Virus record (IMG/VR): IMGVR_UViG_2713897140_000005
Direction: 5' to 3' (one strand)
DNA: 5,496 nt
Source: a virus
Lineage: Duplodnaviria; Heunggongvirae; Uroviricota; Caudoviricetes
Position 1 is the stretch's first letter. Every line of letters begins with the position of its first letter. Below the pieces are notes generated by a model. It was not told the origin of the DNA. It worked only from the letters and a program-made list of their open reading frames with translations, and did not search any database. The position numbers and the translations under genes were made by a program. This document shows, in pieces, positions 1,551 through 5,496 of this stretch.

Positions 1551-1754
1551 ATGAACGAGACAGAATTAAAACACGTTATCGCTCTACTCCTAGAAGATGC
1601 AAAACGCCTCCAGCAACTGGAGCCAAATGCAGGCACTGGGGCACGCATCTGGCTGGCTAAAGAAGCGCTGGAATCTGGCGATTATGATAGCGAAGAAGCC
1701 TTCTACAAAGCAGAAGGCCGTGCAGGATATTCACCGGGTCTTGGCGGGGTATAA
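1551..1754 (+). CDS. Hypothetical small protein, 67 aa
   Basis: ORF track 1542..1754 starts at a GTG. ATG at 1551 is preceded by AGGTGAG (1540-1546), a good Shine-Dalgarno. Translation MNETELKHVIALLLEDAKRLQQLEPNAGTGARIWLAKEALESGDYDSEEAFYKAEGRAGYSPGLGGV. The 3' end overlaps the convergent 98-aa gene by 24 bp. Confidence 0.4.
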   Translation: MNETELKHVIALLLEDAKRLQQLEPNAGTGARIWLAKEALESGDYDSEEAFYKAEGRAGYSPGLGGV

Positions 1755-2027
1755 ATACCATGCGCATTGACTGAATTCGCAAACAAAAACAGACGCGCGA
1801 TACCCGGATAGTCGGTCTGCATAGTCAGATATCTGGCTGCGAATTTGATAAATATCACCGCCCTTTTCGAAAACATAAGTTCCGTCCGGGAGTTGATTAT
1901 ACGAACCATCTCCATGGGGGATCGTTCTCCTGAATCCTAGTGAGAGCATATATTTATGAAGCCCTTCGTAATCCTCTGGCTCAGCATTATATAGTTCTAC
2001 TCTGGCGAGATACGTTGGCATATTCAT
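1731..2027 (-). CDS. Hypothetical 98-aa protein in the sieB-equivalent position; weak pattern-level resemblance to VapD/Cas2-like small nucleases
   Basis: ORF track 1731..2027 (-), MNMPTYLARVELYNAEPEDYEGLHKYMLSLGF.... AAGGAA lies immediately upstream, so the third-codon ATG at 2021 may be the true start. It is transcribed against the flanking + strand genes. The VapD/Cas2 resemblance (strand YLARVEL, helix ending LSLGF, GDGSY, SVFVCEF) is by eye only. Confidence 0.55.
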   Translation of the reverse strand: MNMPTYLARVELYNAEPEDYEGLHKYMLSLGFRRTIPHGDGSYNQLPDGTYVFEKGGDIYQIRSQISDYADRLSGYRASVFVCEFSQCAWYLYPAKTR

Positions 2028-2412: not shown

Positions 2413-2533
2413 CGGTGATGAAAGGAAAGAGAAAATGTTGAATGTAGCTATTGAAAACCAGAACGGGTGGAATTATAGTGCACCTGCACCTCATAAAACG
2501 GGTGCCGGGATTAGCACCCCGAAAGTTACTCGA

Positions 2534-2567
2534 GCGCATAACCGCGCTGAAGCGGTTTTTTTATGCG
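2534..2567 (+). terminator. Candidate intrinsic terminator / attenuator hairpin in the leader upstream of the Rha-family gene
   Basis: Inner stem ACCGC (2541-2545) / GCGGT (2552-2556) with loop GCTGAA, followed by 7 T (2556-2562). Outer complementary arms CGCATAA (2535-2541) / TTATGCG (2561-2567). Confidence 0.45.
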
Positions 2568-2591
2568 TAATGCACAGCCACATTCAAATTA

Positions 2592-2669
2592 TGGTGAGGC
2601 GTGCGGGGCAGCCGCAAGGCTGGCCGGGTTCTCGAGTGACCGGTAGTGCTAACCCTGTGCGTCTCACCA
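2592..2669 (+). other. Structured RNA element (long branched hairpin) in the 5' leader of the Rha-family gene
   Basis: 17-bp stem 2592-2608 / 2653-2669 with 14 Watson-Crick pairs plus 3 G-U pairs that exist only in the + strand RNA (they would be C-A on the - strand). It encloses a CAGCC-GCAA-GGCTG hairpin (2609-2622, GNRA loop) and a CCGG...CCGG hairpin (2624-2643). CTCACC (2663-2668) can alternatively pair with GGTGAG at 2693-2698. Confidence 0.4.
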
Positions 2670-2728
2670 CCCATGAGATTAGCACCTCTGCTGGTGAGTT
2701 AATTAACTTATCACTTGAGGATGTCATT

Positions 2729-3274
2729 ATGGCTACTACCCTTTCTCACCCTGACGTAACCATCGAAAATGGTCGCGCCGTCACTACTTCTATTTCGATT
2801 GCTGAGTTTTTTGGCAAGCAGCATCACCATGTTGTTCAAAAAATAGAATCCCTCGAATGTTCTGAACTATTTTTAACCAGCAACTTTTCGCGGGTTAAAT
2901 TCGAACACCGCGGCAATTCTTATAACGCCTACCAAATCACCAAAAACGGCTTCGTTTTCCTGGTGATGGGCTTCACGGGCAAAAAAGCCGCCACATTCAA
3001 GGAAGCCTACATTGCTGAGTTCGACCGCATGGAGGCCGAACTGCGCCAGAATAACACCCCACCTGCTGACAAGATGATTCCGGGTGATGGTCGCACTCTG
3101 GTTGTTCACTTCGACAAATTCGGCAATGTCGAATTCACCGAAACCGTTCCTGATGGCGCACTGGTCTGTACCCTGGAGACTTTCCGGTTTTATCTGGAAA
3201 AACAGGGCTGGACTCTTGTAAACCGGGGCGCAATTAAAAACATGACCGTAGAGCAGTTGCTTTCCTTAAAATAA
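2729..3274 (+). CDS. Rha-family phage regulatory protein, 181 aa
   Basis: MATTLSHPDVTIENGRAVTTSISIAEFFGKQHHHVVQKIESLE... matches the Rha (Phage_pRha) N-terminal signature, and ...GFVFLVMGFTGKKAATFKEAYIAEFDRME is typical of the family. GAGGA lies 7 nt upstream of the ATG at 2729. The ORF track extends the frame to an ATG at 2435 (279 aa, with an AAGGAAAGAG Shine-Dalgarno), but that extension covers the terminator and hairpin above and is unlike a folded domain, so 2729 is preferred. Confidence 0.7.
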   Translation: MATTLSHPDVTIENGRAVTTSISIAEFFGKQHHHVVQKIESLECSELFLTSNFSRVKFEHRGNSYNAYQITKNGFVFLVMGFTGKKAATFKEAYIAEFDRMEAELRQNNTPPADKMIPGDGRTLVVHFDKFGNVEFTETVPDGALVCTLETFRFYLEKQGWTLVNRGAIKNMTVEQLLSLK

Positions 3275-3966: not shown

Positions 3967-5376
3967 ATGAGCACCGATAAACAAGTTTACCCACTGTATT
4001 ACGAAGCAAAAAATGACAAAGTAAGAAAACGCCTCGGTATTAAAGGCGGTTTTTACTGGGCTGAAGCGAAAAAATTATCCATTGCCATCTCCCGTGGTGC
4101 TGTTGCGATTGACGATGCTGGCTACGATGAAGATGACTTTAAAAAACCTGTTCGCGTCAATTTGCCCGTTGTTGATGACCTCCCACCAGAAGGCGTGTTT
4201 GATACGGAATTCTGCAACCGTTACGAAAAAGGCGGGGAAGATGGCATCACAATGGTATTTATCGCATCTTCTCCCTCTGTTCAGGACAAACCAGCCAGCA
4301 CTGACAATACCAACGTCAACGGCGAAGACATGACAGAAATTGAGGAGAACATGCTCCTGCCAGTTTCCGGTCAGGAACTGCCCATTCGTTGGCTTGCGCA
4401 ACACGGCAGCGAAAAACCGGTAACGCACGTTTCACGCGACGAACTCCAGGCATTACACATTGCTCGGGATGAAGAACTACCGGCTGTTACTGCTCTGGCT
4501 GTTTCGCATAAAACCAGTCTGCTCGACCCGCTGGAGATTCGCGACCTCCACAAACTCGTGCGTGATACTGACAAAGTTTTCCCTAATCCTGGCAATTCAA
4601 ATCTGGGACTGATGACTGCTTTTTTCGAAGCATATCTGGATGCCAACTACACCGATCGCGGTCTGCTGACAAAAGAGTGGATGAAAGGAAATCGTGTTTC
4701 GCGTATCACTCGCACGGCTTCCGGTGCTAATGCTGGCGGCGGGAACCTCACCGATCGCGGCGAAGGTTTCGTCCACGATCTGACGTCGCTGGCGCGCGAC
4801 GTAGCCACTGGCGTACTGGCCCGTTCAATGGACGTGGATATTTATAATCTTCATCCGGCACACGCTAAACGCATTGAGGAAATTATCACTGAAAATAAAC
4901 CGCCCTTTTCTGTTTTCCGCGACAAATTCATCACCATGCCTGGCGGGATGGATTATTCCCGCGCCATCGTGGTTGCGTCAGTGAAAGAAGCACCGATTGG
5001 TATCGAGGTCATCCCCGCGCACGTCACTGAATATCTGAACAAGGTACTGACTGAAACCGATCATGCCAACCCTGATCCGGAAATCGTGGATATTGCCTGC
5101 GGTCGCTCCTCTGCCCCGATGCCGCAGCGTGTAACAGAAGAAGGAAAACAGGATGATGAAGAAAAACCGCAGCCATCTGGCGCAATGGCAGATGAACAGG
5201 CAACGGCTGAAACAATGGAACCGGATGCAACTGAACATCATCAGAACACGCAGCCGCTGGATGCTCAGTCACAGGTAAATTCTGTTGATGGGGGCGGGTC
5301 AGTACTGCGGGTTCCTTGCCAACCGTGTGTGTGGAGAGAAGCTGCCACAGGTGTACCGAGCTCTGGGGATGGATAA
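3967..5376 (+). CDS. recE: RecE (exodeoxyribonuclease VIII) N-terminal-region homologue, 469-aa ORF; apparently truncated or chimeric, C-terminal nuclease domain not encoded in this frame
   Basis: ORF track 3967..5376, with GAGG 9 nt upstream. Segments such as [50 protein letters not shown] and the acidic [15 protein letters not shown] tract match my recollection of the non-catalytic N-terminal part of Rac RecE (866 aa in K-12). No Walker motif. The last about 28 codons ([28 protein letters not shown]) look like out-of-frame junk. Identity is from memory and needs alignment. Confidence 0.55.
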
Positions 5377-5496
5377 ACCGGAACCAGTGGCGAAGGTGTG
5401 CTATGCACAAATGGTGACGCAGCTCCTGAGTCGTGACCCGTTCGAATGCGTGCTGTGTGGCGGCCGGATGGTATACCGCCGGGCCATCGCGGGACT
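5369..5496 (+). CDS. Cys-rich (zinc-ribbon-like) protein, N-terminal fragment; continues beyond the window
   Basis: Frame is open from 5279 to the window end, so it is not in the ORF track. ATG at 5369 overlaps the RecE-like stop (ATGGATAA); an earlier in-frame ATG at 5288 gives [70 protein letters not shown]-x2-C and further Cys suggest a zinc ribbon. Identity unknown (transposase-like or HNH-like are guesses). Confidence 0.4.

Follow-up and report, generated by a model that had tools for sequence, protein, structure and literature searches.

A probable IsrK–C4 RNA immunity module ahead of the Rha gene in a Rac-like Escherichia coli prophage

The immunity factor of the satellite phage P4 is an RNA. 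As reported by Forti et al. 1999, the start of the P4 gene eta (197–199 aa) precedes the promoter PLE, and eta is translated only on messages from an upstream promoter, PLL; kil (65 aa) is said to be the first gene translated from PLE and to stand under immunity control, and translation of the region reportedly prevents termination at the Rho-dependent terminator timm. The literature places P4 seqA and the CI RNA where two Rfam families, isrK and C4, match (PMC3632133; PMC4825925). In phage P1 the C4 RNA controls Ant (PMC8201110), and the P1/P7 C4 precursor is named as a substrate of RNase P in the title of one paper. IsrK–C4 immunity systems of lambdoid prophages were described in 2013 (PMC3632133).

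For the Salmonella prophage Gifsy-1, PMC4825925 places the orf45 start at position +107 of the isrK transcript and reports that anrP, although its operon is transcribed, stays untranslated unless the upstream ORF is translated, and that IsrK expressed from a plasmid activates anrP in trans more than 100-fold, dependent on orf45 translation. It further reports two conformers of the long transcript and a stable processed RNA, STnc1160, downstream of IsrK. The paper compares the Gifsy-1 region with P4 CI and does not appear to call it a C4-family RNA.

Here we analyze a stretch of 5,496 nucleotides (the window; IMG/VR record IMGVR_UViG_2713897140_000005) that is 100% identical to NZ_CP065613 and comes from a Rac-like prophage of E. 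coli, of which it forms the early-left region. Its genes are, in order, two helix-turn-helix regulators, a DUF1391/YdfA-like gene, a structured stretch, Rha, YdaE, a truncated RecE and an IS element. The original prediction took the structured stretch before Rha for a small RNA or for a leader that controls Rha as a riboregulator or attenuator. The analysis supports it: both RNA parts match Rfam families at or above curated thresholds and their helices covary strongly among relatives, which places the features far beyond chance, and each of the elements described was found where it had been placed, save for the number of wobble pairs in one stem. For the whole leader (2435–2740) the folding z-score is −5.06, a stability that none of 100 shuffled sequences attains. 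All three elements inferred earlier exist: an IsrK/SeqA-type small RNA that ends at a terminator, a C4/CI-type antisense RNA, and a long ORF that runs through both. What the earlier reading missed was the family to which these belong, the P1 c4 / P4 cI / Gifsy-1 isrK system, and a predicted promoter inside the stretch. We conclude that the stretch is very probably an RNA phage immunity module of the P4 / P1 / Gifsy-1 type (“IsrK–C4”) in the early-left operon of the prophage. Its features are as follows.

2423..2437, + strand: Shine-Dalgarno-like AGGA (2423–2426) and ATG 2435, the start of the 279-aa ORF.
2435–3274, + strand: long ORF of 279 aa, through the RNA module into Rha; counterpart of P4 eta.
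2451..2479, + strand: predicted sigma-70 promoter-like site, TTGAAA-17-TATAGT; counterpart of Gifsy-1 PisrK and P4 PLE.
2486..2562, + strand: IsrK/SeqA-like small RNA (Rfam RF01394 match, fold and terminator scan).
2486–2505, + strand: IsrK hairpin 1; 97% paired, double changes in 6 of 6 pairs (61-sequence alignment).
2506–2521, + strand: IsrK hairpin 2; 98.6% paired, its loop displaying target a1 (2511–2517).
2511–2517, + strand: target a1, in the loop of IsrK hairpin 2.
2526–2534, + strand: target b1, within IsrK.
2540–2562, + strand: IsrK intrinsic terminator, stem 2540–2557 and U7 at 2556–2562 (terminator scan).
2591..2593, + strand: conserved AUG, at the base of the C4 outer stem on its 5′ side; equivalent of the Gifsy-1 orf45 start.
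2592..2672, + strand: C4/CI-like antisense RNA (Rfam RF01695, three-way fold).
2592–2608 with 2653–2669, + strand: C4 outer stem of 17 bp, from the fold.
2609–2622, + strand: C4 hairpin 1, with a GCAA tetraloop at 2614–2617.
2623–2644, + strand: C4 hairpin 2, with the 12-nt recognition loop b′ at 2628–2639.
2645–2652, + strand: C4 single-stranded recognition segment a′, from the fold.
2663..2698, + strand: alternative hairpin, in which the C4 stem 3′ strand and tail (2663–2671) pair with 2690–2698 and a2 lies in the loop.
2669–2671, + strand: conserved C4 3′ tail A2669-C2670-C2671, resembling the RCCA end of tRNA.
2679–2685, + strand: target a2, TTAGCAC, followed by CCUC (2685–2688), which can pair with the Rha Shine-Dalgarno.
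2711–2722, + strand: target b2, TCACTTGAGGAT, overlapping the Rha Shine-Dalgarno GAGGA (2717–2721).
2729–2731, + strand: conserved Rha start ATG, with GAGGA 7 nt before it.

The limits of the unit can be read from its diverged copies. In E. coli genomes and phages their similarity starts at window position 2484–2486 and ends near 2736–2743, so that the conserved unit begins where IsrK does and ends just past the start of the downstream gene, leaving out the initial 50 nt of the proposed protein extension. A related copy is present in about half of complete E. coli genomes (2605/5426), and the genome that holds this prophage has six copies of the module.

A scan against all of Rfam returned both RNA families over their full length. 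The isrK family (RF01394) matches at 2486–2562 with 68.5 bits against a cut-off of 50 (model positions 1–77 of 77) and the C4 family (RF01695) at 2587–2674 on the + strand with 78.6 bits against a cut-off of 45 (model positions 1–87 of 87). The a1/b1 family (RF03163) scores 23.8 bits in the window, below its threshold of 46.7, because the IsrK model covers the region better. Beyond its score, the isrK match has the two 5′ hairpins and the intrinsic terminator of its family: the hairpin followed by a run of T that had been called a terminator is present (stem 2534/2540–2557/2567, seven T at 2556–2562) and constitutes the 3′ end of IsrK. By alignment column the terminator helix is 62% paired, a figure that we distrust owing to the same misregistration that affects the b2–b′ pairing discussed below. 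The family feature of an own promoter directly upstream is present as a sequence prediction, the promoter-like site at 2451–2479 ending 7 nt before isrK model position 1, with a transcript start predicted near 2486. In 46 distinct upstream regions a −35 (TTGnnn) and −10 (TAnnnT) pair is found with this same spacing to isrK position 1.

The branched 78-nt hairpin, 2592–2669, folds exactly as originally described, and is the C4 RNA. The asymmetry between its strands is real: the + strand folds with −46.9 kcal/mol (z = −4.15) and the − strand with −30.4 kcal/mol (z = −0.82). The claim that the non-Watson-Crick positions are all G-U on the + strand stands, with a correction to their number: the outer stem has four, not three (2599–2662, 2602–2659, 2603–2658 and 2605–2656), each of which would read as an A-C mismatch on the − strand. 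Viral contigs scanned for a pattern of the C4 fold core yielded 120 loci. Among 65 distinct sequences 99.3% of pair positions hold a standard pair and 16 of 27 pairs show compensatory double changes, which establishes the three-way fold of the C4 family; none of 500 shuffles paired as well, and sliding the partner strand reduced pairing to 33–48%. The invariance of C4 hairpin 2 is an artefact of the search pattern, which fixed that hairpin.

The ends of the C4 fold are also conserved. The unpaired C residues that follow the stem are at least 90% conserved and a U precedes the stem; the window reads ACCC, not the canonical RCCA. Together the tRNA-like stem and the conserved CC tail suggest excision, and by analogy with P1/P7 the C4-like RNA is probably released by RNase P. 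At the 5′ foot, C4 positions A5, T6, G7 and G8 are invariant in the 65 sequences.

Two other classes of structured RNA were considered and rejected. ARAGORN found no tRNA or tmRNA gene, and the Rfam matches at E ≤ 1 include no aptamer family of the kind that a riboswitch or other ligand-sensing leader would carry.

Each of the two segments exposed by the C4 fold, a′ and b′, has a target upstream, in IsrK, and a second target downstream, before Rha. In the whole-module alignment of 61 sequences 98.4% of cells are paired between a1 and a′, where 6 of 7 pairs show double changes, and 96.7% between b1 and b′, where all 9 do. For a2 and a′ the figure is 85–88% (double changes in 5 of 5 pairs). By alignment column b2 and b′ pair in only 49.7% of cells, a low value that we attribute to misregistration of the variable b2 segment by MAFFT; a per-locus complementarity search is the better test. 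In the window b2 matches loop b′ over 12 bp. In nearly every specificity class the complement of the class's own loop b′ overlaps GGAGG/AGAGG, 6–9 nt before the conserved ATGGCTAC start. The loops occur in 48 distinct combinations, or specificity types, across which cognate loop–target pairs have median scores of 10.5, 8.5, 12.25 and 8.5 in the four comparisons, whereas non-cognate pairs score 6.5, 6, 6.5 and 6, and no more than 3% of them attain the cognate median. As in the C4 family, then, two exposed segments have a target pair upstream and a target pair downstream, with the last target over a ribosome-binding site. These are the features that define P1 c4: an antisense RNA made from the transcript of its own target, a pair of targets on each side, and the last of these over the ribosome-binding site.

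Co-variation of this kind fits pairing of loops and targets in cis, as in structure A of the Gifsy-1 paper, as well as pairing in trans. Where modules stand in tandem within one phage their loop specificities differ, as expected of orthogonal regulators.

The region between the C4 RNA and Rha adds a second fold. It had been noted that CTCACC (2663–2668) can pair with either of two GGTGAG motifs, 2593–2598 or 2693–2698. All three motifs are there, and the second GGTGAG is no coincidence: across the 61 sequences the helix 2663–2671/2690–2698 is 93.2% paired with double changes in 6 of 9 pairs, none of 500 shuffles reached that value, and slid controls gave 35–72%. This helix and the base of the C4 outer stem are mutually exclusive. 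In a free downstream fragment another partner is open to GGTGAG 2693–2698, namely the 5′ portion of b2. The predicted pairing of CCUC (2685–2688) with the Shine-Dalgarno occurs in 62 of 72 distinct downstream fragments, and over the distinct fragments the predicted mean unpaired probability of the Shine-Dalgarno is 0.21.

The loop of the alternative hairpin contains a2, much as the loop of IsrK hairpin 2 contains a1.

P4 has, between cI and timm, a terminator t4, for which the alternative hairpin, followed by a U-rich stretch, is a candidate counterpart. That the two act as a t4-like terminator is conjecture by analogy.

Alternative folds of this sort raise the question of whether the leader acts in cis only, as an attenuator or translational switch that involves no small RNA in trans. 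The conservation of mutually exclusive helices, the intrinsic terminator within the leader, the predicted sequestration of the Shine-Dalgarno by CCUC in 62 of 72 fragments and the inability of co-variation to tell cis from trans pairing are all compatible with such a switch, as are the two conformers of the Gifsy-1 long transcript (PMC4825925). We nonetheless consider a purely cis-acting leader improbable. In Gifsy-1, IsrK supplied from a plasmid activates anrP and STnc1160 is a stable processed RNA (PMC4825925), and the C4 RNA of P1 and the CI RNA of P4 act in trans (PMC3632133; PMC8201110; PMC4825925). Moreover, the tRNA-like stem with its conserved CC tail suggests an RNA that is cut out, and the differing specificities of tandem modules are those expected of orthogonal regulators.

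The stretch is also an open reading frame. The frame from ATG 2435 had been reported as stop-free and in phase with the Rha ATG at 2729, with a Shine-Dalgarno before it; we find the same, AGGA at 2423–2426 being a possible Shine-Dalgarno. PGAP annotates an extended “Rha” of 279–284 aa from an ATG 2435-type start in all seven Rac-like loci, and at more distant copies “ash family” or “Icd-like” proteins across the RNA module. From the IsrK start to the downstream start the leader frame is free of stops in 75 of 87 distinct modules, as against 17 and 2 for the other frames. At variable columns it shows 26 stops where 128.8 are expected from the composition of the alignment columns, a ratio of 0.20; in the other two frames the ratios are 0.93 and 1.07. 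Avoidance of stop codons in the leader frame is thus general across the family and not a peculiarity of P4.

Such a frame might encode a genuine N-terminal “Ash” domain of a 279-aa Rha protein, with the RNA structures incidental or secondary. The translated leader matches Pfam PF10554 (Phage_ASH) over residues 14–105 with 61.1 bits (cut-off 26), and the PGAP annotations and the avoidance of stops at variable sites, the frame being open in 75 of 87 modules, point the same way. The pattern of substitution does not. Since the heterogeneous downstream genes make a poor coding control, the seven Rac-like loci with homologous Rha were used instead: dN/dS is 0.4–1.5 in the leader; the Rha domain encoded by these same genes gives 0.09–0.36 and has the higher synonymous divergence. 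Third codon positions in the leader show no excess of variation, being no more variable than first and second positions. Compensatory changes in the stems and swaps of loop specificity freely rewrite the leader peptide, and a conserved promoter lies inside the ORF. The purifying selection on amino acids expected of a folded Ash domain is thus missing from the leader. The Pfam match itself speaks against a domain, in that PF10554 also matches the obsolete P4 “cI gene product” ORF, which overlies the CI RNA, P4 immunity being the work of an RNA. On the substitution pattern and this family match we reject a true Ash protein domain, and regard the protein-domain reading of the stretch as highly improbable.

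The leader amino acids, then, are weakly constrained although the frame is kept open, so that selection acts on the RNA and on its translatability, and not on a protein domain. The “Ash” family of Pfam and NCBIfam, and the extended Rha proteins of RefSeq, are translations of the RNA module. The original prediction had named as its counter-case a set of homologous Rha proteins carrying a conserved N-terminal extension whose synonymous variation breaks the stems. In relatives the extension is indeed present as an open frame; their variation, however, preserves the stems by compensatory changes (99.3% of pair positions are paired), and the leader has no protein-like substitution pattern. The arrangement found is the nested one of P4, with an ORF that starts upstream of an internal promoter, crosses both RNAs and has the first gene in frame. 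Because the promoter at 2451–2479 lies inside the ORF, transcripts from it cannot encode the 279-aa form.

P4 epsilon was considered as the source of “Ash” and rejected: epsilon has no match to PF10554 and belongs to PF25738.

We propose that the preferred reading, an IsrK–C4 immunity module, would work as follows. Transcription would begin near 2486 from the internal promoter (2451–2479), and the intrinsic terminator (2540–2562) would halt most transcripts to give an IsrK/SeqA-like RNA of ∼77 nt that carries a1 and b1. Transcripts that read through would contain the tRNA-like, three-way C4/CI-like RNA (about 2593–2672), with release by RNase P probable. Its loop b′ and segment a′ would then pair with the leader targets a2 and b2, and because b2 covers the Rha Shine-Dalgarno, Rha would not be translated. 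By analogy with P1 and P4, early termination of transcription, presumably Rho-dependent, would follow, and Rha and the genes downstream would be silent in the lysogen. The same C4 loops may pair with a1 and b1 of IsrK, in which case IsrK would titrate C4, or C4 would strengthen the IsrK terminator; titration would be the role seen when Gifsy-1 IsrK is supplied in trans. Translation of the 279-aa ORF would require a transcript begun farther upstream, at a de-repressed prophage promoter, and ribosomes crossing the leader would open its structures and so bypass the RNA block. For action in trans, processing by RNase P, Rho-dependent termination and ribosome bypass alike, we infer from homologous systems.

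The sign of this regulation is uncertain, since in Gifsy-1 IsrK activates and ribosomes translate the C4-like region as orf45. The logic of Gifsy-1 might in fact dominate here: the long transcript would be silent, IsrK acting in trans would free AUG 2591, the orf45 equivalent, and ribosomes would read from it into Rha, leaving the C4-like fold mainly as mRNA structure and not as a repressor RNA. AUG 2591 is in frame with Rha with no intervening stop and is invariant in enteric members, and the Shine-Dalgarno of Rha is predicted to be buried. In Gifsy-1 the anrP transcript is made and not translated, and IsrK in trans activates more than 100-fold by way of orf45 translation (PMC4825925); by analogy, a transcribed but untranslated anrP would fit the buried Shine-Dalgarno and open frame seen here. 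Several observations weigh on the other side: 2591 has no evident Shine-Dalgarno before it, the frame is open upstream of 2591 as well, through IsrK and the promoter, which a model based on orf45 alone does not need, and the ATG is absent from more distant members of the C4 family. We consider dominance of the Gifsy-1 logic rather unlikely, while noting that it and the repressor model are not exclusive.

To a further, tentative suggestion we would give slightly better odds though still short of even: translation through the small-RNA gene may be a selected and general feature of IsrK–C4 modules in lambdoid prophages, with ribosomes from 2435 melting IsrK and C4 once the early promoter of the prophage fires. 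If so, immunity would be bypassed and the long Rha isoform made only during induction, and the “Ash domain” would be a translated spacer selected only to lack stops.

The biological gain from this analysis is small and its practical value lies in annotation. The first 98 codons of the 279-aa RefSeq “Rha family” protein are the RNA module, and at least one published survey has taken PF10554 as a marker of P4 epsilon, which PF10554 does not match. Placing Rha behind an RNA switch also predicts how a Rac-like prophage silences its early-left genes, and cross-talk is predicted among co-resident prophages that share loop sequences.

The element itself is already known: it is a member of families that Rfam detects and an ordinary copy of a well-studied phage RNA immunity switch. 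With the immI operon of P1/P7 (c4, icd, ant; RF01695, RF03163), compared here by description only, it shares an antisense RNA that is transcribed together with its target and has two recognition segments, target pairs upstream (a1/b1) and downstream (a2/b2), of which the last target covers the first gene's ribosome-binding site, and control of an antirepressor-type function. The controlled genes differ, being icd-ant there and Rha here.

With isrK-orf45-anrP of Gifsy-1 it has in common the small RNA IsrK, whose terminator is leaky, a downstream structured region (the source, in Gifsy-1, of the stable RNA STnc1160), an AUG at about +107, and control of a Rha/antirepressor-type gene in a lambdoid prophage (for Gifsy-1, PMC4825925). 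In Gifsy-1 orf45 stops near the start of anrP and the two are translationally coupled, whereas here the equivalent frame enters Rha without a stop.

In layout the module resembles the immunity region of P4, with which it is co-linear (PLE, seqA, CI RNA, seqC, kil). The P4 region gives the same Rfam matches in the same order (C4 74.9 bits, isrK 60.8 bits), has a promoter, TTGCCT-18-TATAGT, 7 nt before its isrK match, and forms the same alternative helix downstream of the CI RNA from a different sequence (GCUAUCGCC/GGCGAUAGC). The start of a P4 ORF, 8168–8812, precedes the PLE-like promoter, and the ORF extends across seqA and CI. Three consecutive ATG codons within it would give products of 199, 198 and 197 aa, and its last 65 codons begin MATTLTPSHP; these lengths (197–199 and 65 aa) partly corroborate, at the level of sequence, the published account of eta and kil. 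The ORF of the window aligns co-linearly with the P4 ORF (E = 5e-11), and the first downstream gene, kil in P4 and Rha here, starts at the same conserved ATGGCTAC and encodes MATTL..SHP, Rha beginning MATTLSHP at the position of P4 kil. The layout is therefore that of P4 with a Rha-domain regulator fused in Kil's place. The differences are these: in place of the 65-aa Kil the controlled gene encodes a Rha-domain regulator of 181 aa, joined in frame to the long ORF, about 24 nt separate the IsrK terminator from C4 where P4 has about 100 nt, the recognition sequences differ, and the host element is a Rac-like lambdoid prophage, whereas P4 is a satellite.

RefSeq/PGAP annotates Rha as a protein of 279-284 aa in every Rac-like locus examined (the window and the related loci L125-L130), with a start that lies upstream of the internal promoter, the predicted sigma-70-like site at 2451-2479. 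The elements that bear on translation of the Rha domain are as follows:

2435-3274: extended Rha ORF, as annotated by RefSeq/PGAP
2717-2731: conserved Shine-Dalgarno sequence and ATG of the Rha domain
2685-2688 with 2717-2720: predicted pairing between CCUC and the Shine-Dalgarno sequence

Immediately 3′ of a2, one of the downstream targets of the C4 loops, is a CCUC(C) motif; among 72 distinct related fragments, 62 have a predicted pairing of this motif with the Shine-Dalgarno sequence that precedes the downstream gene. Because of this predicted pairing, the ribosome-binding site of the downstream gene would be buried even when the antisense RNA is absent.

In some viral contigs, complete IsrK-C4 modules occur as tandem pairs or triplets, ~656 nt apart:

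L025 9634-11216, minus strand: tandem modules (likewise in L014 and L112)

Both loop and target sequences differ from one module to the next, and a separate ORF of ~500 nt follows each module; the arrangement resembles a series of RNA switches that are orthogonal to one another. Within NZ_CP065613, the host genome of the window, there are six places similar to the stretch 2435-2760; several IsrK-C4 modules therefore coexist there, and cross-talk between them is possible if loop specificity is common to them.

The remainder of the window contains a further element upstream of the module, with matches to DicF (2201-2251; 28.6 bits) and STnc100 (2263-2404; 34.3 bits) that fall below the respective Rfam thresholds of 48 and 47 bits. 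In one related locus PGAP annotates the counterpart of window ~2326-2400 as a DicB pseudogene fragment. Together the two matched stretches are probably a degraded dicF-dicB segment. Two features belong to this region:

2219-2246: terminator-like hairpin of the DicF-like match
1731-2027, minus strand: 98-aa ORF flanked by the YdfA-like genes and the DicF-like element, with neither a Pfam match nor a RefSeq annotation

Downstream, at 3967-5496, the annotation shows a truncated RecE-family gene and, after it, an IS4-like ISEc60 transposase; the character of ORF 3967-5376 shifts near 5290.

The profile PF10554 ("Phage_ASH") and the NCBI name "ash family protein" correspond to the IsrK and C4 RNA module in translation, both here and in satellite phage P4:

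window 2474-2749 and P4 8168-8584: translated module carrying the Ash family
window 2729-2745 and P4 8346-8365: N-terminal segment shared by Rha and P4 Kil

One published survey (PMC8628076) took PF10554 as the epsilon profile. Comparison of Pfam profiles shows that P4 epsilon has no match to PF10554 and is PF25738, and that in P4 PF10554 matches an obsolete ORF, the "cI gene product". The conserved RNA module extends at its 3′ edge into coding sequence. Rha and Kil, the 65-aa product of the first gene downstream of the P4 CI RNA, are otherwise unrelated proteins, but their N-termini match: MATTLSHP in Rha, MATTLTPSHP in P4 Kil.
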